Assembly: GCA_037146775.1 (NCBI GenBank)
Contig: JBAWWL010000004.1
Location: 22,471-86,470 of the forward strand
Direction: 5' to 3'
DNA length: 64,000 nt
DNA from: Candidatus Omnitrophota bacterium
GTDB lineage: Bacteria; Omnitrophota; Gorgyraeia; Duberdicusellales; 4484-171
Each line of letters begins with the position of its first letter. Positions within the stretch are counted from its first letter, which is position 1. The notes under the pieces are model-generated. The model made no database searches. It was given only the letters and a program-made list of their open reading frames with translations, and had not been told where the DNA came from. Shown piece after piece: positions 10,256 to 43,527 of the stretch. The position numbers and the translations under genes were made by a program.

Positions 10256-10296
10256 TTTACTGCTCTCTTTAAAATGGTAAGAGTGGTTTTCCCGAT

Positions 10297-11190
10297 CTAC
10301 TCGAGATACGCTCCCGAGCCCACGATAAATGTTTCGTTGTTGTAGACGGCCTTACGCACATATGCATGTTTGCGGGATAGCGTAGACTCTCCCGGTTTTG
10401 GCCACATATAATCTATCCAGCCCAAGCCTTTATTAAGCGCAAGCGCAATATATTCCTGCACAAGTAACTTGCCGGTTGAATCCTGGTAGTCCATTAAGTT
10501 TTTTCCTTCTACATTTGGAAAGGCGGGATTAACCAGCTCTACGCCTTTGGGATCATCGACAAATATATATATGTTCATAAAGAGAAACGGGCCGGATTTG
10601 TCCCGAAGAACCGGGAAGGCGTTTTTTCCTTCCTTCTCAATCAAAGCAACTGCATCGTCTACCGCGCTGATAATAAAACATTTTTCTATCTTCATATTAT
10701 ATAATCCGCTGCCAATGACATATGTTTTGCCTGAAGGAGCAACGCAGCGTTTCGCAAAAGTGGTCTTCCACATCGGAAAAATACTTCCCGGCTCTGGCCA
10801 CTGATAATGAAACCATCCTTCGCCCTTATTATCATAACCGGTTGCCACCTCAAGAATATTCTTAATAATCGGCTTATTATTGATGTCTTTCAAGTCAATT
10901 TCGTTCTTGCCTGAAAGTGCGGGGTCGGGATGAACCAGCATATTGCCGTCGGTATCCAAGACAAAAATATACAGATTTCCATGCCGCCAAGCGCTGCCCT
11001 CTTTTTTGAATTCGGTAAATGCGGCCTCGCCCTTACTTGTCACAAGACCGGCGGCGTTTCTTACTAAACTAACCAAGTCCTTGGTTGTCTTATACTGATA
11101 ATCCGATAAATCTTCTGCAGAATGAGCCGGCAGACTGAATAAAAAAATGAAAAGAAATACCCTCACTGCTAACTCAGCTAATTTCTTCAT
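10297..11190 (-). CDS. Secreted tandem Cache-like (sCache_2-type) domain protein
   Basis: 297 aa. N-terminal signal peptide (MKKLAELAVRVFLFIFLFSLPAHSA). Two internal repeats, each with the YIFVxDxxGxxLVHP/NP motif characteristic of single-Cache-2 ligand-binding modules. Confidence 0.5.
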   Translation of the reverse strand: MKKLAELAVRVFLFIFLFSLPAHSAEDLSDYQYKTTKDLVSLVRNAAGLVTSKGEAAFTEFKKEGSAWRHGNLYIFVLDTDGNMLVHPDPALSGKNEIDLKDINNKPIIKNILEVATGYDNKGEGWFHYQWPEPGSIFPMWKTTFAKRCVAPSGKTYVIGSGLYNMKIEKCFIISAVDDAVALIEKEGKNAFPVLRDKSGPFLFMNIYIFVDDPKGVELVNPAFPNVEGKNLMDYQDSTGKLLVQEYIALALNKGLGWIDYMWPKPGESTLSRKHAYVRKAVYNNETFIVGSGAYLE

Positions 11191-11294
11191 TCCAAGTCTC
11201 CTCTTCCTTTATCTGTCGCTAAAAAATAATATCGTAGAGCCCGGAAGAAATATAAGAATAAAACAAATTTCGTGGCCCGGTAAAGTTTTAACAC

Positions 11295-12341
11295 TTACGC
11301 CTTAATAAATTTTACCTGCCTAAATAACTGGAACAGACGGCTAAAAGGCACATACCACTTGGAAAGTTGCCCTAATTGGCCATGAAGCTTCATCTTGCCT
11401 TGAGTTACTGCCACAAAGGAGTCTAGTTTACCTAAAAATATCTGCTCCCAAACAGGGGCGGGACCGGAGATAATAAAAGGTGCGTCGGCATCACAATCTA
11501 ACCTGATAATTTTTCCTTTCTCAAAATTGAATCTGTATGCTTTGTCGGTATCATCCAATTTAATCGCTAATTTTAGCGTTAGATCGAGCTCTTTACCTTT
11601 CGTGGCGATAAATTCATCTTTATTCACCAAATCCACAATCGCCTGAACATGTTCTCGTGAAAACATCGGATAAGCCGATTCACTTTTTGTAAGATTTTCT
11701 TTTAATGCACTGTCTAATTCGTCGAACATTTCTTTGTTAAAAAGACGGGCCAGCGCAGCAACCCTGATCGCCTCTTCCAGCGTTTCAATTAAAGCTAAAA
11801 CATCTTCGAACTTCTCTCCCACAGAAATAACACCATGGTTTTTCAGGATAACCAGGTTATTGGATCTCAAAGCATCAATTACCAGCTGCGGTTTTGTCAC
11901 CGTAGGGGTATCCTGCGCTACAACAGGAATCTCGCCTAAATAAAATTTTGTTTCGAAAGTGAGCGCTTTTAAGTTTTTTTCGACCGCAAAATATCCGTTG
12001 ATTAAGGGCGGATGAGCATGCACAACTGTTTTGGCGGGGAAATTTTTATAGACCAAGCTGTGTAAAGGTAATTCCGAACTTGGTTTCTTTAACGCTGCTG
12101 AATTAAGGGTATTTAAATTAACTTTAACAATGTCTTCTTCTTTTAAATCGCCCAGAAAAGTACCGGTTGCGGTAATAAAAATATTTTCCGAGTCTAACGC
12201 AGCGCTGATATTTCCCGACTTAGCCACACAAAGGCCTGCCTGATAGAGCCGTCTACCAACCTTGATAATTGCATCTTTTATTAACGCTTCATTTGTCATT
12301 TGAATTTTTACATCTGTCATTCGTATTGCATTATTTGTCAT
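11295..12341 (-). CDS. Class II aldolase/adducin-family protein (MtnB-like methylthioribulose-1-P dehydratase candidate) fused to a C-terminal SCP2 sterol-carrier domain
   Basis: The N-terminal ~200 aa match the class II aldolase fold (GNISA..., HxHP metal ligands in VVHAHPP). The C-terminal ~110 aa resemble SCP2 (KLHGQLGQLSKW). The start is ambiguous (ATG at 12341, 12320 or 12299); 12341 overlaps the mtnA stop by 11 nt. Confidence 0.65.
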   Translation of the reverse strand: MTNNAIRMTDVKIQMTNEALIKDAIIKVGRRLYQAGLCVAKSGNISAALDSENIFITATGTFLGDLKEEDIVKVNLNTLNSAALKKPSSELPLHSLVYKNFPAKTVVHAHPPLINGYFAVEKNLKALTFETKFYLGEIPVVAQDTPTVTKPQLVIDALRSNNLVILKNHGVISVGEKFEDVLALIETLEEAIRVAALARLFNKEMFDELDSALKENLTKSESAYPMFSREHVQAIVDLVNKDEFIATKGKELDLTLKLAIKLDDTDKAYRFNFEKGKIIRLDCDADAPFIISGPAPVWEQIFLGKLDSFVAVTQGKMKLHGQLGQLSKWYVPFSRLFQLFRQVKFIKA

Positions 12342-13275
12342 TTATCTCTAAATAAATATGTTCCGTGATCAGATTATTCGGTGTTACATCAAATGCCGGA
12401 TAATAACCTTTGACGCCCTTTGCAGCCAACCGCAAACCTTGATATTCTAAAAGCTCGTTCTCCGGTCTTATTTCTATTTTTATGTCTTTTCCGGTTTTAG
12501 CGCGTGAAGGCGGAGGGCACAAAACATAAAAAGGAATACCGAAATGCTTGGCTAAAATTGCAATCTGATATGTCCCTATTTTATTGGCAATATCGCCGTT
12601 TAAAGCTAAATTATCCGCACCAACAATAACCTTGTTGGCTTTTTTCTCATACATTACCTGCGCCACCATATTATCGGCAATGACGGTAACGTCAAGACCG
12701 GCCTTTTTAAGTTCCCAGGCAGTTAAACGCGCGCCTTGTAAATACGGCCTGGTCTCGGTCACAAAAAAGCTGATATTTTTATTTCCGTGCCGGCAAAATT
12801 GTCCGATTAAGGACATCAGACCGCTGACGTTACAATGCGTAAGCACCACATCATTATCGTTAAGCAACAGACTGGCATCTTGTGCCTGTTGAATACGTTT
12901 CTGCTTTAATATTTCTAAAAAGCCAAGAATATTTTTTTCTAACGGCTCTCCGGCACAGTGCCAACCCAATACCATATCAGTCAGATATTTAAAAGAAAGG
13001 GTGGGCCGGGTAGCGTTAATCTGCGCTGCGGTTTCATGTAAAATCGGCGTAAGGTTCTTTTTATTTTTATTTTTTCTGATCACCAAAAGAAAAGTATATA
13101 ACACCAAGATAACCTGGCCGACTGCGCGCGTTTTCATTTCTTTAATTGCGCGGCAAGCCTGCTCACAATTGTCGGCTTTGATATATTTTATTTTGCGAGG
13201 AAGAAGTGTCTCGTCAAGAATATAAATAGCCTTATTTTTAAATTGGATCGGCCAAAATAATGGTGAAAACTTCAT
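12331..13275 (-). CDS. mtnA: S-methyl-5-thioribose-1-phosphate isomerase (eIF-2B alpha/beta/delta family)
   Basis: Trimmed to MKFSPLFWPIQFKNKAIYILDETLLP... and contains ...TETRPYLQGARLTAWEL...GADNLALNGDIANKIGTY, signature blocks of MtnA/eIF2B. The longer ORF-track N-terminus would overlap the next gene. Confidence 0.8.
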   Translation of the reverse strand: MKFSPLFWPIQFKNKAIYILDETLLPRKIKYIKADNCEQACRAIKEMKTRAVGQVILVLYTFLLVIRKNKNKKNLTPILHETAAQINATRPTLSFKYLTDMVLGWHCAGEPLEKNILGFLEILKQKRIQQAQDASLLLNDNDVVLTHCNVSGLMSLIGQFCRHGNKNISFFVTETRPYLQGARLTAWELKKAGLDVTVIADNMVAQVMYEKKANKVIVGADNLALNGDIANKIGTYQIAILAKHFGIPFYVLCPPPSRAKTGKDIKIEIRPENELLEYQGLRLAAKGVKGYYPAFDVTPNNLITEHIYLEINDK

Positions 13276-13286
13276 ATGTTTTTTGC

Positions 13287-14099
13287 TTAATGATTCGTTA
13301 AATGTTCTCGGTAGTGTGCTGATATTTTTTGTGTCAGCACACCGGGGGAACCTTGCCCTATTTTTTTGCTTCCACATTCTACCAAGGGCATTACCTCAAG
13401 GAGCGCGCTGGACAAAAATGCTTCATCGCTATCGTATAAATCTTCCAAAGTCAATTCCGCCTGACGGACTTTCAGCCGTAATTTTAATAAATCTTTCATT
13501 ATGATTTGCCTGGTAATACCGGCGAAAGCGCCCGACTTATCGGAAGAAGTAAAAATCTGTTTTCCCTTTACCAGAAATAAGTTGCTGCGCGAGCCGCCGA
13601 TAAGATAATTTTGCTGATTCAATAGAAGCGCTTCGTCTTTGTTTACTTTCTGCGCCTGATACCAAGACATTCTATTTTCCATAAAACTTAATGATTTTAT
13701 TTGCGCAAAAGGGCTTTGAGTAGCTTTGCGATAAGGGGAAACTATTGCCGTGAAACCCTTTGCGTAGGCACTCTCCGGATAATAGCCAAAAGTGTCGGCA
13801 TAAATGGTGACGCCGGTAGAATTTCTTTTCTTATACGCTGTGATACGAATATAGGCTTCACTTAAATCGTTTACCTTGAGTAATTCTCGAAGTATCTGTT
13901 CGAAATCCAACGCTACCTTATCCATGTCTAAGACGGCTAAGCCATCATTCAATCGCTGGATGTGTAAATCAAGAAATGGGATTGTACCGCCATAAGCCCG
14001 CAGTGTTTCAAAAACACCCCAGCCGAAAAGAAACCCCGGCTCAAATATTTCCGTAAGTGTTTCTTTTTCAACAAAAGCTGTATTACAAAAAACTTTCAT
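13287..14099 (-). CDS. Class IV aminotransferase (PabC / branched-chain / D-amino-acid aminotransferase family)
   Basis: 270 aa, fold-type IV PLP enzyme pattern (FGWGVFETLRAY..., EAFLSSALLEVMPL). The length favours aminodeoxychorismate-lyase-like. Confidence 0.7.
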   Translation of the reverse strand: MKVFCNTAFVEKETLTEIFEPGFLFGWGVFETLRAYGGTIPFLDLHIQRLNDGLAVLDMDKVALDFEQILRELLKVNDLSEAYIRITAYKKRNSTGVTIYADTFGYYPESAYAKGFTAIVSPYRKATQSPFAQIKSLSFMENRMSWYQAQKVNKDEALLLNQQNYLIGGSRSNLFLVKGKQIFTSSDKSGAFAGITRQIIMKDLLKLRLKVRQAELTLEDLYDSDEAFLSSALLEVMPLVECGSKKIGQGSPGVLTQKISAHYREHLTNH

Positions 14100-14130: not shown

Positions 14131-15012
14131 CTATAAATGAAAGAGCGTAAGAAAATTTTTATGCGCGATTTTCTCGGCACAGCCGCTATCAAGCGCGGCA
14201 ACCGCTTTTAAACTTTCCTGGATGTTCATGTTTGCCGGATAATCGGATCCCCAAAGAATTTTGTCTTCCCCAAACATCTCAATAGCCAACCTGATATTTT
14301 GCAGCGATGAGCCGGAAGCATCAACATAAACTTTGCTTAAAATCTGAGAAGGAAGCTTGCCTAAATCTTTTACCATTTCGCGTTTGCGTAGCATCGTGTA
14401 CACCCGATCAAATCTATCTCTCAAAAATGGGGCAACGCCGCCTAAGGATGAAAAAATGAATTTTATGTTAAATTTTTCTAGGATTCCTTCCATCATCAAA
14501 AGGCCGAGAAACATAGTGCTGTCGAAGCTGTATTCGAGAACCGGCATCAACAGCGGGTCTTTGATGCGCTCGAAACCAATAGGATTTATGGTTTGCGGAT
14601 GAACAAAAATAACCAAATTGTTTTTTTCTGCCGCTTCGAACAAAGGTTGTAATTTCTCCAAAATAAATTTGCCGTCATCACTCGAGGCAATGCTAATTCC
14701 TCTGCATCCTTCTTCCCGTAAATGCCTTACTTGTATAGCTATGTTGCCGCTTAAATCCACTATACCACAAGCAACAAATCTCTGGTCATCTTCAATCAAT
14801 GCCCCCAAAGAAGAGTTATACACTTCGCAAAGCTTTGGCCAACCAAGCTTTAAATGTGCGTCGGTGGCAGGGTATACTAAGAGCGCTTTCTGAATATCGC
14901 TGGTATCCAAAAATTCCAGTAACCTCTTTTTATCCATCCAGATACCCTGGTAAAAAGAGGTGTGCTCTGCTATTGGCGGTGGAATAAAATGAATATGACT
15001 ATCACACAGCAT
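14131..15012 (-). CDS. Amidohydrolase_2 (PF04909) TIM-barrel metal-dependent hydrolase
   Basis: 293 aa with an N-terminal DSHIHF metal-binding motif and C-terminal WGSDYP, as in ACMSD-like amidohydrolases. No Shine-Dalgarno at 15012; the start is uncertain. Confidence 0.65.
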   Translation of the reverse strand: MLCDSHIHFIPPPIAEHTSFYQGIWMDKKRLLEFLDTSDIQKALLVYPATDAHLKLGWPKLCEVYNSSLGALIEDDQRFVACGIVDLSGNIAIQVRHLREEGCRGISIASSDDGKFILEKLQPLFEAAEKNNLVIFVHPQTINPIGFERIKDPLLMPVLEYSFDSTMFLGLLMMEGILEKFNIKFIFSSLGGVAPFLRDRFDRVYTMLRKREMVKDLGKLPSQILSKVYVDASGSSLQNIRLAIEMFGEDKILWGSDYPANMNIQESLKAVAALDSGCAEKIAHKNFLTLFHL

Positions 15013-15143: not shown

Positions 15144-16601
15144 CTATATGTGCTTCTCTCCCTTCACTGCTCCTGCTTCCCACTTAGAAACACCACGCAT
15201 AACATCCTGGAAGCAAAGTTTTGCCAGTTGATCAAAGTTACTGGTCATAATTCTCTGGATGCGTCCAGGCTTAGAGAAAAATTCCCGCATACACCACGCA
15301 CCGAGCCTTCCGTAATCTTCAAGAGAAAGATGCGTAGTGCGCATGACCGGATGGAGAAAATCCCATTTAAGAAAATCGATCTTTTTAATATCTATCTCTC
15401 CCCGCTTAACCCTCTGCCTCCAGATAGGTGAATTCGGGGCCGGAGTAACATAACCAACCCATAAAATATCCGGGTCTACCTCGTCGGTAAACTCGAATCT
15501 TTGCTTTATGGAGTACTCGGTATCATCATCAAAACCCATCATAATATCAGCCACAATAGCAATATTCTGGGCGCGCAAAATATCAATGGTTTTCTTAATC
15601 TGGTCAATCGTGATGCCTTTGGCTATTTTTTTAAGTTCCTCGGGCGTAGTAACCTCAATGCCAAATACCCCCATGAACATGCCGGTTTCTTTCATGAGGG
15701 GTAAAATCTTCTCGCAATTAACCCAATCAACGGCTCTGCCTAAAGAAACCCATTTAATGGGATTATTCTTCTCTTTTTTCAATTTACAGAATTTCTCAAC
15801 CCTGTCAGGATTGACATTAAAATTATCGTCCTGGATAACTACAACTTTGGTGCCCATTTTATGCAGAAGCTCCAACTCTTCAATCACACGCTGGGGAGAT
15901 TTTGCCCGCCAGGTAAGAAAATCCTGCGGAGAACGGGGATCATATTGATCCCATTCGTAACAAAATGTACAAGCCGAAGGGCAGCCACGAGAAGTCATCA
16001 TTTCTACAAATGGTTTCCAGAAAGTATGCCCGACGTATTTATCCATCGGAAATAAATCGTACGCGGGAAGAGGCAGTGTATCCAGATCTTGCAATAATGG
16101 TTTATGCGGGCCCATGACTGGTTTACCGTCTATCCGACTGGTAACGCCGGCAACGTCTTTCATGTTTTTCCCTTTATCTATCGCCGCAATCAAATCGCAG
16201 AAAGACTCTTCCTCTCCCATAACCACATAATCTATCGCCGGATTGTCTTCCAAGGTCTGAACCGGCAAAGCGGAATACCAGAGGCCTCCCATAACTATCT
16301 TTACTTTGGGTAAAACTTGTTTTATTCTTGCGGCAGCCTGGTTAAAATACCAGATTATACCAAAACCTACTGAACAATGAATCATATCGCCGAGGACAAC
16401 TACGTCAGGATTTTTTTCCTTAACTTTTGCGGCGAGCTCTTCAATGGGGATTCCTAAGACGGTCGCATCCAAGACTTCCAGATTATTATAACCTTTTTCG
16501 CGAATATACGCTCCCCACTGGGCATAAAGCTGGTTAGGTGCAAAGTGGTTACCATGCGTTGCCCAAGCGCCGACTTTTGGCATAACGAAAAGAATTTTCA
16601 T
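15144..16601 (-). CDS. B12-binding radical SAM protein (class B radical SAM)
   Basis: 485 aa. N-terminal cobalamin-binding Rossmann-like domain followed by a radical-SAM CxxxCxxC motif (SRGCPSACTFCYEW). Confidence 0.85.
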   Translation of the reverse strand: MKILFVMPKVGAWATHGNHFAPNQLYAQWGAYIREKGYNNLEVLDATVLGIPIEELAAKVKEKNPDVVVLGDMIHCSVGFGIIWYFNQAAARIKQVLPKVKIVMGGLWYSALPVQTLEDNPAIDYVVMGEEESFCDLIAAIDKGKNMKDVAGVTSRIDGKPVMGPHKPLLQDLDTLPLPAYDLFPMDKYVGHTFWKPFVEMMTSRGCPSACTFCYEWDQYDPRSPQDFLTWRAKSPQRVIEELELLHKMGTKVVVIQDDNFNVNPDRVEKFCKLKKEKNNPIKWVSLGRAVDWVNCEKILPLMKETGMFMGVFGIEVTTPEELKKIAKGITIDQIKKTIDILRAQNIAIVADIMMGFDDDTEYSIKQRFEFTDEVDPDILWVGYVTPAPNSPIWRQRVKRGEIDIKKIDFLKWDFLHPVMRTTHLSLEDYGRLGAWCMREFFSKPGRIQRIMTSNFDQLAKLCFQDVMRGVSKWEAGAVKGEKHI

Positions 16602-16650: not shown

Positions 16651-17424
16651 TTATTTCTCTGGATGTTCCTGCTTATATGGTATCACCGGTTTGGTCCAGG
16701 GCGTTTGTTGATTTATAACTGCGATCTCTAAAGGACACACATTCGCCGGAACCGTCAAAGCAAACCGTACTGCATTTTCAATCGCTTCGGTGGTCATCAG
16801 ACGCGAAGCGTCTGCAGTTATTTCCTGCAATTTACCGGTTAAGTCGGTATCAGTAACCCCGGGTAAGATTGACGTAACCTTTATACCCCGATCGCGCAAT
16901 TCCCAAAATAATCCTTTTGAAAAAGCCCGTAAACCAACCTTAAGCGAACTATATACGATAAAGTTTCTGGGTAATGGGTCGCAAAGAGTCGAACCAGAAA
17001 CCATATTAATAATTGCTCCTGATTTCTTAGCTATCATATCATTGATCACTAGGCGGATTAAACGCACATAGCCCAGATAGTTAGTGTGCGCTAAGCGCTC
17101 AAAGTCCTCGATAGGCTGTTTCTCGAAAGGATACTGGCTGGAAACACCGGCGTTATTAATTAAAATATCAATATCGCCGAACGTTTCTTTCGCTTTGTTA
17201 ACCAGGTTTTCTAAGTCATTAAGCTTGGTTACGTCGCAGACTACTGGCAGAACTTTTACTTTGTATTTTTTTGCGAGCTCTTCGGCTGTTTCTTTAAGCG
17301 GGCCTTCCTGGCGCGCGGCAATAACTAGATTTATACCCAGGCTTGCGGCAGTCGACGCTATGGCTTTACCGATTCCGCGGCTTGCTCCGGTAACAACAGC
17401 AGTTTTATTCTTTAGGTTGCTCAT
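16651..17424 (-). CDS. Short-chain dehydrogenase/reductase (FabG-like ketoreductase)
   Basis: 257 aa with TGASRGIGKAIA (TGxxxGxG) and NNAG plus YxxxK catalytic motifs. Confidence 0.85.
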   Translation of the reverse strand: MSNLKNKTAVVTGASRGIGKAIASTAASLGINLVIAARQEGPLKETAEELAKKYKVKVLPVVCDVTKLNDLENLVNKAKETFGDIDILINNAGVSSQYPFEKQPIEDFERLAHTNYLGYVRLIRLVINDMIAKKSGAIINMVSGSTLCDPLPRNFIVYSSLKVGLRAFSKGLFWELRDRGIKVTSILPGVTDTDLTGKLQEITADASRLMTTEAIENAVRFALTVPANVCPLEIAVINQQTPWTKPVIPYKQEHPEK

Positions 17425-17948: not shown

Positions 17949-19070
17949 TTATGTTTTTACAACAAAATATCTGCTCGTAAATAATAATCCCGCCAGCCCT
18001 GAGCCCAGCGTTATAAAGCCGAGCATAAAACTTTTGTGCATAAGCCAGCCGGAAAAAACTACACCGCAGGCTCCGGCAATAAAACGTACTCCGCTGTTTA
18101 AGCTCGCGGCTTCGTTAAGCATATTCTTAGGTAAATCGGTAAGTGCCGCAGAAATGCCCGCGTGATTGAACGTCCAGCCCAAGCCCCACACAAGCATTAA
18201 GAGTACTAATATGGCGAGTGGACTTTTTACCAACAATAAGAATGCGCTTATAATCATAAGCGCTATCCCGACATCGGCGGTTTTCCTGCGGCCAAGTATA
18301 TCGGAAAGCCAACCACCGATCGCCTCTCCAAAAATACCGCTTAAGCTTGTCAATGTTATCAACATACTGATAAGAAACTGGTTCATTGAAAATGTGGCAG
18401 CAAAGTAAACGGAAAGCCATTGCTGTATGCCATGGTAGAATAAACTGACAAAAAATATGTAGGCAAATATCGAAATGATTGTCTTGTCTCGCAATACTGT
18501 CATGTATGGAATTTTTCTGCTGCTTCGCTGTACCACACACGAAGGCAGCCACAGATACATCAACAGCCATACTATAAAACCGATTATTGCGGGAATTAAA
18601 AAAATCATTCGCCACGGCATAATACCACTTGAGAATAATCCTGCCAGTGATGCGACAAAGGTGGCACTAAAAAATATCCCTACCAATTTTCCGCGATTTT
18701 TAGCTTCGACGCTATGGCCGATAAGAATCAAAATGAGCGGCACTACTGAAGCGCCAAAAATACCCATTAAAAAGCGTGCAAGAAATAACATATCAAGGGT
18801 GGGCGATAAAGCCGCCAGTAAGTTTGCTGCCGAAAAAAGGAAAAAACATACTAATTCGATCCTTTTTGCGTCAAACATATTCGCCAATGGCCCATAAAAA
18901 AGAGCGGCAACACCGTAAGGGAGCATATAAAGCCATACAATTCTGCCGGCAACGAAGAACTCGACGCCGAAATCACCGGCTATTGAAGGGATAAGAGCGG
19001 CGCAGGCGGCAACATTGAAAGATAAAACCGCGCCCTCTAAACAAAGTATTATAAAAGTAAGTTTTCTCAT
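17949..19070 (-). CDS. Major facilitator superfamily transporter
   Basis: 373 aa with about 11-12 predicted hydrophobic helices. MFS signature-like GxLaDrxGrkxxl region (GGWLSDILGRRKT). Confidence 0.8.
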   Translation of the reverse strand: MRKLTFIILCLEGAVLSFNVAACAALIPSIAGDFGVEFFVAGRIVWLYMLPYGVAALFYGPLANMFDAKRIELVCFFLFSAANLLAALSPTLDMLFLARFLMGIFGASVVPLILILIGHSVEAKNRGKLVGIFFSATFVASLAGLFSSGIMPWRMIFLIPAIIGFIVWLLMYLWLPSCVVQRSSRKIPYMTVLRDKTIISIFAYIFFVSLFYHGIQQWLSVYFAATFSMNQFLISMLITLTSLSGIFGEAIGGWLSDILGRRKTADVGIALMIISAFLLLVKSPLAILVLLMLVWGLGWTFNHAGISAALTDLPKNMLNEAASLNSGVRFIAGACGVVFSGWLMHKSFMLGFITLGSGLAGLLFTSRYFVVKT

Positions 19071-19096: not shown

Positions 19097-19150
19097 CAGA
19101 TTACACAGATTTTTATAATCGGTGCAATCATTGTCCTAATCTGTGTAATC
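19097..19150. repeat. Perfect 12-bp-stem hairpin (gattacacagat/atctgtgtaatc), family 3; shares the 18-mer tcctaatctgtgtaatca with 26089..26106
   Basis: Stem arms at 19099..19110 and 19139..19150. The right arm overlaps the stop codon of the SRPBCC gene. An identical 18-mer recurs 7 kb away. Confidence 0.45.
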
Positions 19151-19619
19151 ATTTCATCGTAGAGATTTCTTTTTCAATTACTTCCTTAAAAATTTTTAAA
19201 TTGTCTTTTGAATGTTTATTAATAAAGCCTTCGACCTGTTCATCATTGAATTTCGCTTTTTCATCCATCTCAAAATGCTGGATCCAAGTCATCTCAATGC
19301 CTGTGGTGCGCGGGGTATACAACCAGATGATTTTCATAAACTTAAAAGGAAACTTCGGCTCTTCTCTTTCGGCATAGGCAAGATATTTATCTTTAAATAA
19401 TAAGCGCCATGATTGCCAACTGCGATTTTCGTCATCGGTAAGTTTAAAAGTAATTTTATTGTTTTCCTTTTTAACAACCTCGGCCTTTTTATATTCTCCG
19501 CCGAACAGCTCTGTCCAGCGCGTAATATCATTAGAAATATCAAAGATCTTTTCGTAGGGTGCATTGATAACAATTGAATTAACTGTATGTCCCATTTGTT
19601 CCTCCTTTATATTGTTCAA
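19149..19619 (-). CDS. SRPBCC (START/Bet v1-like, polyketide cyclase/dehydrase family) protein
   Basis: 156 aa, the size and pattern of Polyketide_cyc2-type proteins. Lies adjacent to the cyclase, ACP and KS genes. Confidence 0.6.
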   Translation of the reverse strand: MNNIKEEQMGHTVNSIVINAPYEKIFDISNDITRWTELFGGEYKKAEVVKKENNKITFKLTDDENRSWQSWRLLFKDKYLAYAEREEPKFPFKFMKIIWLYTPRTTGIEMTWIQHFEMDEKAKFNDEQVEGFINKHSKDNLKIFKEVIEKEISTMK

Positions 19620-19626: not shown

Positions 19627-19678
19627 AGTTCAATGTTCAATGAATACTCTCTGAACACTGAACGTTTAACATTGAACT
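19627..19678. repeat. Hairpin with 11-bp perfect stem (agttcaatgtt/aacattgaact), family 2 (GTTCAAYG half-sites); related copy at 41609..41639
   Basis: Seen directly in the sequence. The right arm overlaps the stop codon of the cyclase gene. Confidence 0.4.
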
Positions 19679-20474
19679 ATAATATTGCTACTACTCTCGC
19701 CCAGGCAGCTCCGGTAGTTTTAATTTTTACCGGAAAACAAATTACTTTAAATCCGAAATCCGGCAATTGCTCCAAATGAGCTAAGCGTTCTATATGGATA
19801 AACTCTCTTTTACGGCCGTAGAAATGCGTAGGGTATAGCTTCTTGGGATCTTTTGTTTCTAAAAACTCTTTGAGCATAAATTTATAAGGCCGGTCTATAC
19901 CCATGGTATCTACTCCAAAGATCGTAATACCTTTATCTAAAAGATAATCTATCGCCGAAATATCTACTCCTGGATAATCGCTAAAATATTTTTGCCCGCC
20001 GTATAATTTATCCGCCCCGGTACGTAAAAGTACAATGTCTAAGGCTTTGAGCGAATAATTTATTTTCTTTAATGCTGCCTCGATGTCGGCAGCAATAATG
20101 ACTTCATTTGGTTTTTTATGCGAAACGTCAAGTTTTACACCGTTTTGATAACACCACTGGAGAGGAATTTCTTCGGCGGTCTTTGAGGCGCGGCCTTCGG
20201 ACTTTGAACCGTAATGAAATGAGTAATCCAAGTGTGTTCCGATGTGTACTGGCGAATGCACTATTTCCAAAGACAAGAACTCTTCGTCGGGCAAGTCTTC
20301 TTTTCTTACAATACGCTTACCTAATATATATTGGAGTTTACCTTTAAGGGTTTTACCCATCAATACGCGGTTGAATTTTTCAACGCCTGCCTGATGAGAC
20401 ACACGCTCAATCTCCACATGGTGGACTTCAAAGGCCTTATCGTCTATGGGAAGGCTTAGGTCGATTATTTGCAT
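19677..20474 (-). CDS. PF04199 'putative cyclase' family protein (kynurenine formamidase-like fold)
   Basis: 265 aa with the HxGTHxD metal motif (HIGTHLDYSFH) characteristic of the cyclase/arylformamidase family. Confidence 0.75.
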   Translation of the reverse strand: MQIIDLSLPIDDKAFEVHHVEIERVSHQAGVEKFNRVLMGKTLKGKLQYILGKRIVRKEDLPDEEFLSLEIVHSPVHIGTHLDYSFHYGSKSEGRASKTAEEIPLQWCYQNGVKLDVSHKKPNEVIIAADIEAALKKINYSLKALDIVLLRTGADKLYGGQKYFSDYPGVDISAIDYLLDKGITIFGVDTMGIDRPYKFMLKEFLETKDPKKLYPTHFYGRKREFIHIERLAHLEQLPDFGFKVICFPVKIKTTGAAWARVVAIL

Positions 20475-20821: not shown

Positions 20822-21826
20822 TTATTTCAAACTATGTTTCTTGAAAAATTCCCAAATCTGCTCGAATGATATATCGCAAGAAACAGGTCCAACCATATTC
20901 GCTGGTAAATACTGCGCTCCACTGGGATACGCGTGCCCCATTCCTTCTACCATACATAACACAACTTCTGAACCTTGTGCGCAATCGTTATAGATCACGC
21001 ACCTCGCTGCGCCGTTTTCGTATCCGGCGACCTGTTTATCTGAACATTGGTTTATCTTTTTCCATACATCCACCACTTGATAAGGAGTCATCCTTTGATA
21101 GGGCATAGCAAAACCTGTACCACTATCTTTAGCAAAAATACTTCTTGGTTCGCTACCGTCGGGAGGATTGGCTGGATCAGCCGTACCGTGGATATTCATT
21201 ACCGGCATTGACCGGGACGGTTGGCATTCTGATTTTACTGCAGCGGGAGTCACAGTAGCAATAGCTGCTATTTTTTCTGAAAGTTCGCAGCCAAGCCGAT
21301 TAGTCATCAAACCACCGTTCGAAATACCGGTAGCATAAATCCTTCTGGCATCAACTTTAAATTTCGCTTTCAATTCGTCTATCATTTTGGAAATAAAGCC
21401 TACGTCGTCGGCGGAACCGCAACATTCGCCGGTTGCCCATTTCCCACCATTCCAAACTCCTCTTAAATGCCCAAATGTTAACTCGCCGGTTCCTTCCGGA
21501 ACCGCCAAGATAAAACCAAATTTATCTGCTGCTTTATCTACACCATCCATATAGACTGCTCGCATATCGCCAGAGCCTCCATGGATATAGATAACAACTG
21601 CAAAAATCGTTTTTCCGTCATAGGCTGGCGGGAGATGAACCTTATATTTTCTAATTATTCCGTCATGCGCTAAAGAAAATTCCGGATCGTCAGCACCGTA
21701 AGACTTTTCTTTCTTTTCTTGTGGGCGTTTCTTTATTTTTTCCTTCAAAATATTTTGAGCGGAAACGCTGGAAGAAAATACAAATAAAATACTCAATATC
21801 GCAATTATAGCTTTGTGCTTTTCCAT
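20822..21826 (-). CDS. Secreted alpha/beta-hydrolase esterase of the PHB-depolymerase (LpqC/Esterase_PHB) type
   Basis: Trimmed to MEKHKAIIAILSILFVFSSSVSA... (signal peptide). IYIHGGSG and GISNGG (GxSxG nucleophile elbow) motifs. Its ATG overlaps the KS-beta stop as TAATG. Confidence 0.65.
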   Translation of the reverse strand: MEKHKAIIAILSILFVFSSSVSAQNILKEKIKKRPQEKKEKSYGADDPEFSLAHDGIIRKYKVHLPPAYDGKTIFAVVIYIHGGSGDMRAVYMDGVDKAADKFGFILAVPEGTGELTFGHLRGVWNGGKWATGECCGSADDVGFISKMIDELKAKFKVDARRIYATGISNGGLMTNRLGCELSEKIAAIATVTPAAVKSECQPSRSMPVMNIHGTADPANPPDGSEPRSIFAKDSGTGFAMPYQRMTPYQVVDVWKKINQCSDKQVAGYENGAARCVIYNDCAQGSEVVLCMVEGMGHAYPSGAQYLPANMVGPVSCDISFEQIWEFFKKHSLK

Positions 21827-23070
21827 TACTTCTCTACTGCCAACACCACATTTATCCCGCCGCGGCCGCGCGCCAACAACAATGCTTTTTTTATCTTCTT
21901 TTCGCGGGCAACGTTCGGCGTATAGTCGAGATCGCAATAAGGGTCTGCCATTTCATAATTGACGGTAGGAAGAACTAAATTATTGTTCATGGAAAGCAGA
22001 GTTATGATCAAATCTAGGGCTGTTTGTGCACCCAAGAGATTTCCGTACATACTTTTCGGCGCACTGAGACTAATGTGTTCTAATTCTTTACCGAATACAT
22101 GTTTTAAGGCTTGCGTCTCCAGATAATCGCCCATCACGGTCGCCTCAGCATCAAGACAAATATAATCTATTTCTTTCTTGGTCCAACCCGCATCCCGAAG
22201 GCATTCCTCTATCGCATATTCGAGCATATCCGGGGTTGGGCTATAGCGCTGGTAATGATACCCGTCTGAAGAAAATCCAACACCCCTCAAAAATCCGTAA
22301 ATATGCGCGCCTCGGGACTTGGCGTGTTCTTCTTTTTCTAAATTGACTATGCCTGAGCCTTCGCCCAAAACAAAACCATCACGGTATAAATCATAGGGTT
22401 TATACGCTTTTTTCGGATTAAGGTTGTTCTTAGACAATTGTCCGCAGGAATTTGAACTTAAAAGCGCGTAAGGCGTGATGGGCGCTTCCATTCCTCCGGC
22501 TAAAATATAATCATTTTTTCCTTCACTAATATTTTTCGCGCCATACCACAGGGCAAGCGCCGAAGAAGCTTTATCGCATACAACCGTTTTGCTGTAACCC
22601 TTAAAACCGTAATAAATAGTGATCTGACCTTGCGGAGCTGCAGGAAACCATGCGCTGGCCATATAGGGTGAGACCCCTTCTCTACCTTCAATATACATAT
22701 CGCGCAGTTCTGTTTCCGCAAAAAGCCAACCCCCTATCGCATTACCCATAAAAACACCGACACGTTTTTTATCTACTTTATCCAAATCTACTTTTGCATC
22801 CTGCAACGCTTGCTCGCTGGCAACAAGTGCCATATGTGAAAACACGTCTATTTTTTTCACCAAGCGGCTGGGCAGATGCGAATAATGGTCAAGTTCGTGA
22901 ACTTGGCCGGCAATACGTGAAGGATACAAAGAAGCATCAAAACGCGTAATCTCGTCTATAAAGGATTTGCATTTTTTTAGGTTCGCCCAAAAAGTTTCTT
23001 TTTTTAAACCCGCGGGAGAAACAACGCCGATGCCGGTTATAGCAACTCTTTCTTTCATCATACTCTCCAT
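21826..23070 (-). CDS. Ketosynthase paralogue lacking the catalytic His-His pair (chain-length-factor-like KS-beta)
   Basis: 414 aa with a thiolase/KAS fold. The HGTGT and GHxxGAAG His motifs present in the adjacent KS are replaced by CLDAEATVMGDY and NLLGAQTALD. The active-site Cys region is altered (VVCDKASSAL). 13-nt overlap with the upstream KS. Confidence 0.75.
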   Translation of the reverse strand: MESMMKERVAITGIGVVSPAGLKKETFWANLKKCKSFIDEITRFDASLYPSRIAGQVHELDHYSHLPSRLVKKIDVFSHMALVASEQALQDAKVDLDKVDKKRVGVFMGNAIGGWLFAETELRDMYIEGREGVSPYMASAWFPAAPQGQITIYYGFKGYSKTVVCDKASSALALWYGAKNISEGKNDYILAGGMEAPITPYALLSSNSCGQLSKNNLNPKKAYKPYDLYRDGFVLGEGSGIVNLEKEEHAKSRGAHIYGFLRGVGFSSDGYHYQRYSPTPDMLEYAIEECLRDAGWTKKEIDYICLDAEATVMGDYLETQALKHVFGKELEHISLSAPKSMYGNLLGAQTALDLIITLLSMNNNLVLPTVNYEMADPYCDLDYTPNVAREKKIKKALLLARGRGGINVVLAVEK

Positions 23071-24308
23071 TTTTTGAATATAATAGACGAATGTATTCCG
23101 GAAAATCCACTGCTGGTTTTCAAAATATAATTAGGCATATATTGCCTTTTTACATTGGGAATATAATCTAAGTCACATTTCGGGTCAGGTTCTTCCTGGT
23201 TTATCGTGGGAGGTAAATAGCCTTTTTCGAAAATCATCGCGCATAAAACACTTTCTACTGCGTTCGCCGCAGCCAAGGGGTGTCCGATCATCGACTTCAC
23301 TGAACTGATAGGCAATTTATATGCGTAATCGCCGAATACTGCCTTATAGGCGTTAGTCTCAAAAACGTCGTTTTGACGGGTAGATGACCCGTGAGTGTTG
23401 ATATAATCTATATCTTCATTTTTTATTCCTGCGTCTTTAATTGCGTCTTTAATGCAGCGCTCCATTGCTTCGCCATCTTCCGGCAGATCGGTCATATGAA
23501 AGGCATTGCAACTGGTACCGTAACCGACTAATTCTCCATAAATATGCACACCTCTTTTTTTGGCGTGTTCAAGTTCTTCCAAAACTAAAACCCCGGCGCC
23601 TTCGGAAATTACAAAACCATTTCTCTTGTTATCAAAGGGACGGCTGGCTTTGTGTGGTTCGTCGTTGTTCTTAGCCAAAACATTAACTACGTCAAACGCG
23701 CCAAAGGTAATCGGACACACCGGCGCCTCCGTGCCTCCGGCGATAATCATGTCTTGCCGGCCTTCTCGGATAAGTTCGAAAGAAAATCCGAGCGAATCCG
23801 TTGCGGCGGTACAGCCGGTAGAAACTGTACAATTGAGTCCCTGTGTATGATAGAGAGCTCCTATTTCGGCACTCGGCGTATTAAACATGGCTGCATCATA
23901 AAGATATGGCCGGCCCTTACGCGGATCGATAGGTTTTTTACCCCAATCGGTTACCAACAAGAATTCCTCTTCCATGAAGCGCGTACCGCAGATAGCGTTA
24001 GCCAAAACGACTCCGCATCTTTTCCTGTCTATCTTGTTAAAATCAATATGGCTGTCCTCAACTGCCTGCTTGGCCGCGGCAATACCAAACTGTACATATC
24101 TATCCATGCGTATATGGTCTTTTATTCCGAATTTTAACGGGTCAAAACCTAAATCTTGTGAGGCTATTTTTGAGACAAATAAGCTTACGTCAAAATTTTC
24201 AACCCTTTCAACAAAAGGTTTACCCGCAATAAGGTTGTCGTAAAAAGTATTCTTATCTTCTCCTGCCGCGCTGATTACCCCGATTCCTGTTATAACTACA
24301 CGTTTCAT
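23058..24308 (-). CDS. Beta-ketoacyl synthase (KS-alpha; FabF/type II PKS KS family)
   Basis: 416 aa. Active-site Cys in VSTGCTAATDSLG, His in YINTHGSST and His in MIGHPLAAA. Confidence 0.85.
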   Translation of the reverse strand: MKRVVITGIGVISAAGEDKNTFYDNLIAGKPFVERVENFDVSLFVSKIASQDLGFDPLKFGIKDHIRMDRYVQFGIAAAKQAVEDSHIDFNKIDRKRCGVVLANAICGTRFMEEEFLLVTDWGKKPIDPRKGRPYLYDAAMFNTPSAEIGALYHTQGLNCTVSTGCTAATDSLGFSFELIREGRQDMIIAGGTEAPVCPITFGAFDVVNVLAKNNDEPHKASRPFDNKRNGFVISEGAGVLVLEELEHAKKRGVHIYGELVGYGTSCNAFHMTDLPEDGEAMERCIKDAIKDAGIKNEDIDYINTHGSSTRQNDVFETNAYKAVFGDYAYKLPISSVKSMIGHPLAAANAVESVLCAMIFEKGYLPPTINQEEPDPKCDLDYIPNVKRQYMPNYILKTSSGFSGIHSSIIFKKWRV

Positions 24309-26109: not shown

Positions 26110-26373
26110 TTATGTTTGTATGTATTTTTCGTATTCAATACCAAGCTTAGTAAATAATCTTTTCATCATATCCTTGAATGCCGGAGGAATTTCCTTGAAA
26201 AATGCTTCCACCAGCTCTTTCTCTTCTACGCTTGTCAGATTTTTACTTTTGGCAATTTCTTCCGCCGACTCCTTAACCAATCTTTCGGCAATAGTACGGT
26301 GAAATTGCGGCAAATTGCTGATTACTTTATCGAATATTTCTTTTGCCTTTGGACTCCATTGCATATCAGACAT
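26110..26373 (-). CDS. Small alpha-helical protein of unknown function (weak resemblance to PCP_red-type domain)
   Basis: 87 aa. The W-SPKA-E...LPQFHRTIAERLVKESAE pattern resembles the W..EA...PxFVR motif of the protochlorophyllide-reductase C-terminal (PF08369-like) module. Low confidence. Confidence 0.4.
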   Translation of the reverse strand: MSDMQWSPKAKEIFDKVISNLPQFHRTIAERLVKESAEEIAKSKNLTSVEEKELVEAFFKEIPPAFKDMMKRLFTKLGIEYEKYIQT

Positions 26374-26464: not shown

Positions 26465-27190
26465 CTAAATTATTTCAAATACCGCCCTGGTCATCTTTTC
26501 TTCCGCATCGAATAGCCGAAAATCAGCGAAACCCATTTCACCGGTAAGCAAGTTATCCGAAGCTACCAATACCGCGGCTACTTTCCTTTTGTAGACATTA
26601 GCAATAGTCACGAACGGACTGGTCACCATGTCGACACAAATAGCGCCTTTTTCTATGTAAGGATTTACGATCTCTTTGGTTTCCCTAAACATCGCGTCCG
26701 TTGTCCAACAGCCGCCCTGATACACCGTTCCTTCTTTCTTGAAGATTGCCGCTAATTTACCGGTTAATTCTTTATCTACCTGAGAAACAAACTTTTCATC
26801 CACATAGTAACGCGTAGCGCCGTCGCCCCTGATAACTTTATCGACTACAACAAAATCTCCCACAGTCATTTCCTGCAACATCCCTCCGCAAGAACCCAAA
26901 CGAATAAGCGTCTGTATTCCTCCTACGCATAATATTTCTGTAACGAACGCTGAATCGGGGGCATAGAAGCCGCCGTTACCTACGGTGACTTTTTTTCCTT
27001 TGTACGTTCCGGTCCAAAAGGTATATCCTAAAAATGTAAAATTTTTTACGGGGTTTCCCAGATATTGAAGGCAACGCTGAGCTCGCTGCATTTGACCGCT
27101 GATAATACCGATTTCGCCAAAGTCTCCCGGCCTAAACTGTAAAGACTCTAGTAACCCCTTCGCATGCAGATGAACATCTCTTTGCATCAT
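26465..27190 (-). CDS. PNP_UDP_1 family nucleoside phosphorylase/nucleosidase (MTA/SAH-nucleosidase or futalosine-hydrolase-like)
   Basis: 241 aa with GxGGxxTL-type phosphate-binding and a fold pattern (TVGNGGFYAPDS..., VGGIQTLIRLGSCGG) typical of PF01048. Confidence 0.7.
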   Translation of the reverse strand: MMQRDVHLHAKGLLESLQFRPGDFGEIGIISGQMQRAQRCLQYLGNPVKNFTFLGYTFWTGTYKGKKVTVGNGGFYAPDSAFVTEILCVGGIQTLIRLGSCGGMLQEMTVGDFVVVDKVIRGDGATRYYVDEKFVSQVDKELTGKLAAIFKKEGTVYQGGCWTTDAMFRETKEIVNPYIEKGAICVDMVTSPFVTIANVYKRKVAAVLVASDNLLTGEMGFADFRLFDAEEKMTRAVFEII

Positions 27191-27243: not shown

Positions 27244-28788
27244 TTATACTGACCCCGCGCTGTTTTCTCGTTTAGTTTTGCGTGTATTCGCTGCTATTAA
27301 TTTTGTTTTATCGATCTTGCCTACCCTATTTTTTGGCAATTCTTTTACATATTCAAAGTAGTGTGGGATCTTAAAATGCGCCAGGTGAACTTTTAAAAAT
27401 TCTTTCAGCTCATCCAGGGCTATCGGTTCGCCGTCCTTGGTTACGATAAATGCCTTGGGTACTTCGCCGCGCAACTCATCGGGCAAACCGATCACTGCAA
27501 CTTCTTTTATGTTCGGATGACGCTGCATCTTTTCTTCTACCTCGGCTGAGAATACAATCTCTCCCGCGACTTTTATCATATCCTTTTTCCTTCCTACCAG
27601 ATAAAAAAGCCCCTCCTTACAATAGGCGACATCGCCGGTTTTAAGCCATCCGTCGCCGGTCAAAACAGCCTGTGTCATCTGCGGCGCTTTATAATAACAT
27701 ACCATCACGCCATCGCCCTTCACCAAAAGCTCCCCTGTTTCGCCATACAATAATTTATTTCCTTTGTCATCCACTACTTTTGCGTCCATCCGGAAACCGA
27801 AGCTACCAATACTGTCTATGGCTTTTCCGTCCGGGGGCGAATAGGTGTTCGGAGCTGCTGTTTCTGTCATTCCCCAGCCGTTTAGTAATATCGCCTTGGG
27901 GCAAGAACGATGGAATTTTTTCAAAAGTTCCGGTGATGACGGTGCGCCAAAAACTACCGCATAGCGTAATGATGCCAACTCATAATAATCGTATTCTTTC
28001 AACGATAAAATCGCCACATACATCGCCGGTACGATACAAAATATGGTTACTTTATATTTTTCGATGTTTTTGAGAAACTCTAGCGGATGAAAGCGCTCCA
28101 TAAGCACCATTGTGGAAGCAAAACGAAGCATTAAAAGAATATAATCAAGGCCTCCGATGTGAGAGAAAGGTACGCCACCAGTAAGAAAAATATCTTTATC
28201 CGAAACTCCTAAAAAATGGTTGATGGTATCAACCGGGTTATCCAGATGCTTGTAACTAAGCATGACCCCTTTGGGATTACCAGTTGAGCCCGAGGTATAA
28301 AATAAAGAAGAAATATCGCTGTCTTTAATCTCTATCTTTGGCTCTGCCTCGGTATTATTAGCTAAAACATCATCCCAAAGAAGACACCCTCTCACCCTTT
28401 CCTTGCACACAATTACGTCTTTGAGCGAAGAGCAGGCGTTTTTAATATTCATGATATTGATATCTTTTCTCGGCTGGATAATTAATATTTTCGCTTCGCA
28501 ATGGTTTAAGATATCAATAATTTCTTCTTCGGTAAGCATAAAGTCGAGTGGAACAAGTGTTAACCCGGCACAAAAAACCGCTATGTAGCTATAGACCGCT
28601 TCGGGGATATTTGAAAGAAAAAGCGCTACCTTGTCTGGTTTTCTAACTCGCGCGCCGTAAAGATAATTAGCCAATCTAAAAGAAGGCCCCTTAAGTTGCG
28701 CAAAAGTAATATTCTGTCCCTCGAAAATAATTGCTGGTTTTTCGGGATACGAAGAAACTTGTTTGAGTAATAATTCTTTTACATTCAT
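27244..28788 (-). CDS. AMP-dependent synthetase/ligase (acyl/aryl-CoA or acyl-ACP ligase)
   Basis: 514 aa with the AMP-binding motif YTSGSTGNPKGV, the TGD motif (LKTGD) and the C-terminal PKNRVGKIDK lysine motif. Confidence 0.85.
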   Translation of the reverse strand: MNVKELLLKQVSSYPEKPAIIFEGQNITFAQLKGPSFRLANYLYGARVRKPDKVALFLSNIPEAVYSYIAVFCAGLTLVPLDFMLTEEEIIDILNHCEAKILIIQPRKDINIMNIKNACSSLKDVIVCKERVRGCLLWDDVLANNTEAEPKIEIKDSDISSLFYTSGSTGNPKGVMLSYKHLDNPVDTINHFLGVSDKDIFLTGGVPFSHIGGLDYILLMLRFASTMVLMERFHPLEFLKNIEKYKVTIFCIVPAMYVAILSLKEYDYYELASLRYAVVFGAPSSPELLKKFHRSCPKAILLNGWGMTETAAPNTYSPPDGKAIDSIGSFGFRMDAKVVDDKGNKLLYGETGELLVKGDGVMVCYYKAPQMTQAVLTGDGWLKTGDVAYCKEGLFYLVGRKKDMIKVAGEIVFSAEVEEKMQRHPNIKEVAVIGLPDELRGEVPKAFIVTKDGEPIALDELKEFLKVHLAHFKIPHYFEYVKELPKNRVGKIDKTKLIAANTRKTKRENSAGSV

Positions 28789-43486: not shown

Positions 43487-43527
43487 TTTTTATTCCTTTT
43501 TTTAGTGTAGATAAATATACGTGTATC

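Follow-up and report, generated by a model that had tools for sequence, protein, structure and literature searches.

A ketosynthase gene and its adjacent paralog

The 64,000-nt stretch analysed here (contig JBAWWL010000004.1 of assembly GCA_037146775.1, a Candidatus Omnitrophota bacterium, positions 22,471 to 86,470; hereafter the window) harbors on its minus strand two adjacent, co-oriented paralogous genes of the ketosynthase (KS) family. Their products are 36% identical over 414 residues, and each displays full-length ketoacyl-synt N and C domains (Pfam, E 1e-24 to 1e-45). The upstream gene encodes a KS with an intact active site, and the downstream gene (hereafter the partner) a protein devoid of all three catalytic residues (Table 1). 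Overall, we interpret the two as the KS-alpha and the KS-beta, or chain-length factor (CLF), of an aromatic type II polyketide synthase (PKS), an assignment to which we attach a probability of about 0.85. Aromatic (type II) PKSs, whose products include the anthracyclines and tetracyclines, are defined by a KS/CLF pair at their core and are known mostly from actinomycetes.

A sequence-only reading of the window had proposed a coupled KS pair in which the downstream member had lost its catalytic histidines. Both open reading frames (ORFs) were found on the minus strand at the coordinates that it had claimed, and all the peptide strings that it had quoted were found in the two proteins. The pair was then aligned with FabF of B. 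subtilis and Listeria, with AntD, and with ActKS and ActCLF, the sequences of the latter two having been checked residue by residue against PDB 1TQY; no gaps occurred around the catalytic motifs. The KS keeps the Cys and both His that had been attributed to it (Cys166, His306 and His343), as well as Lys338. In the partner, whose residues are numbered throughout according to the 414-aa ORF, the Cys/His/His sites read Lys/Asp/Asn. The loss of the histidines is thus real and not a misalignment by eye, since the gap-free alignment gives Asp307 and Asn344, and what had been described as an altered Cys region can be sharpened to the replacement of the nucleophilic Cys by Lys167. The classical CLF Gln (Gln161 in ActCLF) is absent too, as alignment to 1TQY_B places a Lys at that position, the partner reading D-K where ActCLF reads E-Q. 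A helix of the partner, GGWLFAETEL, aligns with the gate residues of the actinorhodin CLF, which Tang et al. 2003 reportedly identified as F109/T112/F116 and which are here W115/A118/L122.

Conservation of the pair and of its junction

When one genome per GTDB species was scanned, 436 stretches encoding a relative were obtained. The best 80 of these 436 stretches are 56-91% identical and nearly all labelled Candidatus Omnitrophota, some bearing approximate labels such as "uncultured Planctomycetia". One of them belongs to the closed genome of Ca. Velamenicoccus archaeovorus LiM (Omnitrophota). Compilation of the alignments revealed that, among 81 partner orthologues, (i) the residue before the Cys site is Asp in all (81/81), (ii) the Cys site is occupied by Lys in 41 and by Arg in 40, (iii) the first His site is Asp and the Lys position Lys without exception (81/81 each), and (iv) the second His site is Asn in 80 and Ser in one. 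The Cys/His/Lys/His set of the KS is unchanged in 75/75 KS orthologues. Nonsynonymous divergence (dN) from the nearest species ranges from 0.03 to 0.12 for the KS and from 0.06 to 0.18 for the partner, with synonymous sites saturated; as the synonymous rate (dS) was saturated or not computable in every pair, only a few rough dN/dS values were obtained (~0.01 for the KS, ~0.04 for the partner). Both proteins are under strong purifying selection. Because the partner's substitutions are fixed in 81 orthologues and dN is low where dS is saturated, they represent neither chance nor decay.

The junction of the two genes was read directly from the sequence. The KS gene ends with TGA at 23060-23058, and the partner has in-frame ATG candidates at 23070, 23061 and 23058. 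The last of these (23058-23056) is preceded by GGAG at 6 nt, the NCBI gene model of an identical protein (P0001, 410 aa) starts there, and most homologue N-termini agree with it, for which reasons the likely overlap is of 1 nt (TGATG). An overlap of the two genes, as the sequence-only reading had stated, therefore exists, but the 13 nt given there hold only for the longest ORF, starting at ATG 23070. A rough heuristic script, which assigned some starts wrongly and gives a lower bound only, put the nearest in-frame start no more than 13 nt from the KS stop in at least 47 of 74 related loci, offsets of -4 and -1 being the commonest. Tight linkage between the KS and the partner is conserved, and the precise length of the overlap is not.

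Phylogenetic position of the two proteins

A neighbour-joining (NJ) tree, rather than a maximum-likelihood one, was built from 55 sequences (410 columns, 100 bootstraps), including few characterised CLFs. All 24 Cys-less proteins, ActCLF and the Omnitrophota partners among them, form one clade with 100% bootstrap support. The Omnitrophota KS groups with AntD (100%) and with ActKS (54%, or 80% for a clade also taking in two uncharacterised KSs), and both the KS and the partner fall outside the FabF-like (Cys/His/His) sequences. The KS also finds its best PDB sequence match in AntD (6smo_B, 364 bits), followed by ActKS (1tqy_A, 334 bits), and has in common with AntD a 5-residue insertion and the GFSGIHS motif.

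The partner and ActCLF carry several motifs that are found in neither the KS nor FabF. These are the AWF loop (ASAWFPAAPQGQ vs ESFAWFYAVNTGQ), an acidic residue ([DE]-x-A) before the Cys site, Asp at the first His site, xPK[ST], and the C-terminal ARG.G.N motif, which reads ARGRGGIN in the partner and ARGRWGFN in ActCLF. A search of 1.84 billion 50%-identity cluster representatives showed that the nearest non-family relatives of the partner (38-57% identity) are mostly Cys-less, with Asp-Arg or Asp-Lys common at the Cys site, while sequences with the full Cys/His/His set enter from ~39% identity down, interspersed with Cys-less relatives. A basic residue in place of the CLF Gln, found as Arg in relatives from Clostridium, Ktedonobacter and Archangium too, is a trait of the non-actinomycete part of the CLF tree, not a novelty of this pair. 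The same search returned proteins of ~800-870 aa with two KS-like halves (P0122, P0126, P0130, P0144, P0147 and others; 28-34% identity), which we read as natural KS-KS or KS-CLF fusions.

The surrounding gene cluster

The occurrence of the neighbouring genes was determined by tblastn of the window proteins against 82 related loci, many of which end at contig ends. The KS and CLF genes were each present in 82/82 loci, and the genes found with them are compiled in Table 1.

Table 1. Features of the KS/partner locus and its gene neighbourhood (window positions; locus counts by tblastn)
Feature	Position	Strand	Basis, occurrence or remark
KS-alpha (putative), active ketosynthase, 416 aa	23058..24308	-	Pfam ketoacyl-synt N and C domains, catalytic columns, tree
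KS-beta/CLF (putative), dead partner	21826..23058	-	410 aa from ATG 23058
Partner, longest ORF	21826..23070	-	414 aa, ATG 23070
KS/partner junction	23056..23070	-	Sequence read directly
KS Cys166	23811-23813	-	Alignment
KS His306	23391-23393	-	Alignment
KS Lys338	23295-23297	-	Alignment
KS His343	23280-23282	-	Alignment
Partner Asp166-Lys167	22570..22575	-	Lys167 (22570-22572) at Cys site
Partner Asp307 (first His site)	22150-22152	-	Alignment
Partner Lys339, kept Lys	22054-22056	-	Alignment
Partner Asn344 (second His site)	22039-22041	-	Alignment
Partner helix GGWLFAETEL	22705..22728	-	Aligned to actinorhodin CLF gate residues
Acyl carrier protein, discrete, 76 aa	20558..20788	-	PF00550 E 1e-11; 78/82 loci
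PF04199 putative cyclase, DpsY/OxyN type	19677..20474	-	E 1.6e-29; 74/82 loci
SRPBCC aromatase/cyclase, single-domain TcmN type	19149..19619	-	70/82 loci
MFS transporter	17949..19070	-	PF07690; 56/82 loci
SDR	16651..17424	-	adh_short E 1e-51; 55/82 loci
B12-binding radical SAM enzyme	15144..16601	-	Pfam; 51/82 loci, up to 95% identity
Amidohydro_2 protein	14131..15012	-	47/82 loci
ApbA/PanE-type NAD(P)H reductase fused to two TIGR04076 domains, 546 aa	24387..26027	-	
Conserved 87-aa protein	26110..26373	-	Weak DUF2621/PCP_red similarity; 67/82 loci
PNP_UDP_1 nucleoside phosphorylase or nucleosidase	26465..27190	-	58/82 loci
AMP-forming acyl ligase	27244..28788	-	44/82 loci
Class IV aminotransferase	13287-14099	-	Co-conserved downstream block (8759..14099)
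MtnA-like isomerase	12331-13377	-	Co-conserved downstream block
Class II aldolase + SCP2 fusion	11295-12341	-	Co-conserved downstream block
Cache-domain gene	10297-11190	-	Interrupts downstream block; 0/82 loci
Aldehyde dehydrogenase	8759-10255	-	Co-conserved downstream block
Alpha/beta-hydrolase, PHB-depolymerase/feruloyl-esterase type	20822-21937	-	Between CLF and acyl carrier protein genes; 2/82 loci
WapI-like immunity-protein gene	17405-17875	-	Between MFS and SDR genes; 0/82 loci
Exopolysaccharide export set (Wzy-like, Wzz/GNVR kinase, Poly_export/SLBB, porin-like protein)	48606-54280		
PilZ and GGDEF signalling proteins	35056-37053, 54296-54835, 57125-58429	-	

The combination of a discrete acyl carrier protein (ACP), an OxyN/DpsY-type cyclase and a TcmN-type aromatase/cyclase indicates an aromatic type II PKS. 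The SRPBCC protein matches TcmN (2rez, 85 bits), WhiE-ORFVI and ZhuI, within a range of 77-85 bits, and its WQSWR segment aligns with WVSHR of TcmN, the Arg falling on the TcmN residue that we take to be the catalytic R69. The role of TcmN R69 has been described (PMC12664062). For the PF04199 cyclase the PDB sequence search returned isatin hydrolase only. The major facilitator superfamily (MFS) transporter, with efflux-type NCBIfam matches that are all below cut-off, is a probable exporter, and the short-chain dehydrogenase/reductase (SDR) is a candidate polyketide ketoreductase (KR). The best named match of the radical S-adenosylmethionine (SAM) enzyme is BchE (TIGR02026, 201 bits, below the cut-off of 481). 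The family of the Amidohydro_2 protein takes in aromatic-acid decarboxylases.

Upstream of the KS, the ApbA part of the fusion protein was detected in 73/82 loci and its C-terminal TIGR04076 part in 68/82; in one locus (L002, 7160-8766) the two parts are separate genes encoding 336 and 199 aa. The TIGR04076 domain gives the impression of an accessory that is conserved in this PKS lineage and as yet unexplained. The gene for the 87-aa protein always lies upstream of the ApbA gene; PCP_red, to which it bears weak similarity, is a domain of protochlorophyllide reductase. By analogy with AntG, the AMP-forming acyl ligase (AMP-ligase) is a candidate for starter-unit or ACP loading. A futalosine/menaquinone reading of the PNP_UDP_1 protein was rejected, no MqnA/C/D/E-type genes being present and the radical SAM enzyme being of the B12-binding BchE/HpnJ type. 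Judging from synteny only, the co-conserved downstream block may belong to the pathway.

Three genes are local insertions in an otherwise conserved cluster, namely those for the alpha/beta-hydrolase, the WapI-like protein (because it is absent from 82/82 related loci) and the Cache-domain protein. Translation of the alpha/beta-hydrolase probably begins at Met38 (ATG 21826-21824); this start has a 1-nt overlap with the CLF stop, and a signal-peptide-like segment comes after it. An AntI-like role for this hydrolase was considered and rejected because of its esterase type, its signal-peptide-like segment and its occurrence in 2/82 loci.

Beyond the cluster, the window also contains the hydrogenase maturation genes HypD and HypF (42184-45843), an exopolysaccharide export set, and PilZ and GGDEF signalling proteins (Table 1), none of which showed linkage to the PKS cluster in other genomes. 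In the parts of the window covered, all ORFs of at least 120 aa lie on the minus strand, as do all those annotated with a protein-family match. Of the 32 2-kb bins, 30 show a negative GC skew, so that the window has the appearance of a single long co-directional run.

Weighing of the assignment

The sequence-only reading had named two possible contexts for a KS partner without histidines, chain-length factors and the inactive partners of ladderane and aryl-polyene candidate clusters. The former is borne out by the CLF clade (100%), the CLF-only motifs, and the adjoining ACP and two aromatic-polyketide cyclases. Several observations nevertheless weigh against an aromatic KS/CLF pair. The heterodimer and its product are predicted from the genes, by analogy with characterised systems. 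Neither a malonyl transferase nor a phosphopantetheinyl transferase (PPTase) was found among the scanned window ORFs, the scan covering those from position 8759 onwards, and the SDR gave no ActKR-specific match in the PDB sequence search. In pairwise comparisons the partner scores higher with FabF (287 bits) than with ActCLF (220) and AntE (134); because pairwise scores prefer FabF, its membership in the CLF clade rests on the NJ tree and the motifs. The AlphaFold2 model of the partner monomer (27 close homologues) is mediocre, with a mean predicted local distance difference test (pLDDT) score of 68 and values below 50 at residues 34-71, 107-160 and 193-229, including the expected interface and tunnel segments, and its Foldseek matches in the PDB, all FabF/KS at a template-modeling (TM) score of ~0.70, do not separate CLF from FabF. 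Finally, the D-K/R...D...K...N signature of the partner appears to be conserved beyond the need of a pure scaffold, and the protein could have a function of its own. The higher FabF score had also given rise to the idea that the partner is an independent FabF-derived dead paralog, which was rejected because of the 100% CLF clade and the CLF-only motifs.

A function of its own would make the partner more than a passive tunnel wall, the Asp-Lys/Arg, Asp, Lys and Asn residues performing chemistry or binding such as starter selection, ACP docking, or stabilisation of the enolate or of the growing chain. Such a role is compatible with a KS/CLF heterodimer. Apart from a K/R exchange at the Cys site, each of the five positions carries the same residue in 80 or all of the 81 orthologues. 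Distant relatives vary more there (R/E/H, R/H/H, T/D/H and A/D/R), and the partner exceeds the KS in dN by a factor of only ~1.2 to 2.8. Yet no nucleophile or His dyad is left in the protein, conserved buried charges can be structural, as in a salt bridge filling an empty pocket, and in the actinorhodin CLF, too, the first His site is Asp and the Lys is kept. We know of no catalytic role for these two residues of the actinorhodin CLF. On this evidence we consider a function of this kind quite improbable.

A reducing or non-aromatic type II system, whether for an aryl polyene, a ladderane candidate, an ishigamide-type polyene or a cispentacin-type product, would likewise combine a Cys-less partner with an active KS, and the cluster does contain SDR and B12 radical-SAM genes. 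However, no FabZ/FabA-type dehydratase and no second KR were found by Pfam among the scanned cluster ORFs, two aromatic-polyketide cyclases are conserved beside the ACP, and the KS groups with AntD and ActKS. The radical SAM enzyme scores 78.5 against the ladderane-type model TIGR04072, far below the cut-off of 360, as compared with 201 against BchE, and with the NCBIfam model AmcF (cispentacin) the KS and the partner reach 158.7 and 122.4 for a cut-off of 325. The ladderane or aryl-polyene context envisaged by the sequence-only reading is therefore not upheld, and we regard a reducing system as very improbable. Least probable of all is an ordinary FabF with a degenerate FabF duplicate and no polyketide role, which could invoke the strong scores of both proteins with the fabF model TIGR03150 (448.7 bits for the KS, 375.2 for the partner) and the FabF entries that are the partner's best PDB sequence matches, but which has to contend with scores below the equivalog cut-off of 493.75 in both cases, with a partner that lacks three catalytic residues and is still highly conserved, with the position of both proteins outside the FabF-like sequences, and with a cluster that has its own ACP, cyclases and exporter.

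Proposed mechanism

Taking the pair as the KS/CLF of an aromatic type II PKS, a scheme can be proposed by analogy with the 1TQY and 6SMO structures. Both proteins would be translated from a single, tightly linked message and would assemble into an obligate heterodimer, in which Cys166 of the KS would perform all the Claisen condensations of malonyl-ACP. The partner would complete the dimer and close the far end of the acyl tunnel through its helix GGW115-LF-A118-ETE-L122, and this closure would set the number of extensions. The chain length is probably C16-C20, no finer prediction being possible. The resulting poly-beta-ketone would be folded by the two cyclases, possibly after reduction by the SDR, and would then be tailored and exported. 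Lacking both the Gln and the histidines, the partner probably does not serve as a decarboxylative 'chain initiation factor'. Priming might instead proceed by decarboxylation of malonyl-ACP at the KS, or with a starter loaded by the conserved AMP-ligase, as proposed for the loading of AntF by AntG, a suggestion that we make with low confidence. A 2-hydroxy-acid starter could, speculatively, arise from the class IV aminotransferase and the ApbA-type reductase.

As the window carries HypD and HypF, the source organism is probably an anaerobe, and because of this probable anaerobic host the BchE-like radical-SAM enzyme is a candidate for oxygen-independent methylation or oxidation of the aromatic core. 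The PNP_UDP_1 phosphorylase, the MtnA-like isomerase, the class II aldolase and the aldehyde dehydrogenase together resemble what we take to be a 5'-deoxyadenosine/methylthioadenosine salvage route (the 'DHAP shunt', DHAP being dihydroxyacetone phosphate). This salvage-like set, which flanks the PKS genes and is co-conserved in many loci, is possibly paired with the B12 radical-SAM gene.

A broader proposal, which we put forward tentatively and hold to be on balance unlikely, is that the pair stands at the centre of an aromatic-polyketide pathway of Omnitrophota that is conserved widely, has been inherited mostly by vertical descent and combines CLF-independent priming and a non-acetate starter with radical-SAM tailoring and 5'-deoxyadenosine recycling, and whose product is a lineage-signature metabolite. 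The starter would then be supplied by the class IV aminotransferase, the ApbA-type 2-keto-acid reductase and the AMP-ligase, while the BchE-like B12 radical-SAM enzyme would carry out oxygen-independent tailoring, its 5'-deoxyadenosine being recycled by the phosphorylase, the MtnA-like isomerase, the class II aldolase and the aldehyde dehydrogenase. The exported product might serve host/prey interaction or act as a redox shuttle, rather than being a sporadic 'secondary' metabolite.

Distribution and significance

Omnitrophota are a phylum of mostly anaerobic, ultra-small epibionts and predators. The cluster was found to be syntenic in about 80 species-level genomes (at least roughly 75), nearly all labelled Omnitrophota and including Ca. 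Velamenicoccus archaeovorus; as this count comes from the best 80 stretches, the true number of cluster-bearing species is likely to be higher. The phylum comprises ~700 species in GTDB R232. Biosynthetic clusters tend to occur patchily, and a distribution as broad as this hints at a function of importance to the lineage. One contig binned as "Methanosarcinales archaeon" (JAIWAR010000044.1) carries a partner copy that is 80% identical, together with most of the upstream and core genes from the AMP-ligase through the SRPBCC cyclase, and is probably a mis-binned Omnitrophota contig. An epibiont or predator that lives alongside methanogens, a way of life described for Ca. Velamenicoccus archaeovorus, would fit such mis-binning.

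In a 2023 catalogue, Candidatus Omnitrophica is one of 14 phyla credited with KS-CLF pairs, with no further analysis (PMC10132072). This catalogue excepted, our literature search found nothing linking Omnitrophota or Velamenicoccus to ketosynthases or type II PKSs and no published description of the cluster, and polyketides go unmentioned in two genomic overviews of the phylum. The less ordinary features are that the cluster is conserved in its entirety over such a breadth of an uncultured phylum and that radical-SAM and salvage genes are conserved along with it. The pair adds a well-conserved, full-length example from such a phylum to the little-studied 'ancestral' CLFs from outside the actinomycetes, with Lys or Arg in place of the textbook Gln and a whole pseudo-active site frozen across 81 orthologues. 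It thereby offers natural-product chemists a concrete target, and studies of CLF evolution and priming a natural variant without Gln and His. Ca. Velamenicoccus archaeovorus is the only enrichment-cultured representative named in the literature covered, and metaproteomes exist for it.

Comparison with known systems

FabF (KAS II) has the same fold and length as both proteins, is 36-41% identical to them and provides the best structural matches. It is, however, a homodimer with Cys-His-His in both subunits, whereas the partner is without the triad and both window proteins score below the fabF cut-off. The actinorhodin KS/CLF (ActI-ORF1/ORF2, 1TQY) is alike in its adjacent paralogous genes and in the Cys-His-His of its KS. 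ActCLF, like the partner, is Cys-less, has Asp at the first His site, keeps the Lys, carries the AWF loop and the ARG.G.N motif, and falls in the same tree clade. The two CLFs, 34% identical, differ in having Gln161 versus Lys (or Arg), Arg versus Asn at the second His site, and F/T/F versus W/A/L at the gate positions; the actinorhodin source is an actinomycete, and that of the window a low-GC member of the Omnitrophota.

The KS is closest to AntD of the Photorhabdus anthraquinone AntD/AntE(/AntF) system (6SMO, 6SMP), with 45% identity and 364 bits. AntE resembles the partner in having no Gln, and the AMP-ligase gene of the window cluster resembles AntG, which has been proposed to load AntF (PMC6638757). 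In AntE, Asp occupies the Cys/Gln site and the C-terminal third is divergent and shortened, yet the protein forms a functional dimer with AntD (PMC6638757). The partner, in contrast, is full length and matches AntE only over the N-terminal 260 residues (134 bits). A further difference is that no AntI-type enzyme is evident in the window, where the alpha/beta-hydrolase appears to be a secreted, esterase-type insertion.

Among the non-actinomycete relatives, the KS-CLF of Ktedonobacter racemifer has been expressed and purified (bioRxiv 10.1101/2020.05.18.102780). Its CLF (P0142) falls with the partner in one broad clade of CLFs. Arg occupies its Cys site and its W/A/L gate is identical to that of the partner, but it keeps both His (R/H/H) and is 39% identical to the partner. 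An Archangium relative (P0146) reads Arg/Asp/His at the three sites.

The closest relative in a cultured organism is a clostridial cluster, whose host, as is probably the case for the source of the window, is an anaerobe. By exact look-up, P0128 is a protein of C. beijerinckii/C. puniceum, 43% identical to the partner and with Arg/Glu/His at the three sites. These two species are the clostrubin producers, and judging from the organism names only P0128 is very probably ClrB of the clostrubin clr cluster. Between the C. beijerinckii locus and the window, identities amount to 44% for the KS, 42% for the CLF, 45% for the PF04199 cyclase, 43% for the SRPBCC protein and 29% for the Amidohydro_2 protein. 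A TIGR04076-like ORF lies directly after the CLF in C. beijerinckii (L083, 9260-9787), and the gene order common to both clusters takes in KS-CLF, the TIGR04076-like ORF, the PF04199 cyclase and the SRPBCC gene. The clostridial CLF has Arg at the Cys site and a W/G/L gate close to the W/A/L of the partner, but unlike the partner it keeps the second His (R/E/H). Gene calling in the 17 kb of the clostridial locus gave PPTases and other hydrolases, and neither a B12 radical-SAM nor an ApbA or MFS gene. ClrB has been placed in the C20 CLF clade, and KS-CLF-ACP-TcmN-OxyN has been described as the architecture of 'ancestral' non-actinomycete type II PKSs (PMC7693217). The window cluster, with its KS-CLF-ACP set and its TcmN-type and OxyN-type cyclases, has the same composition.

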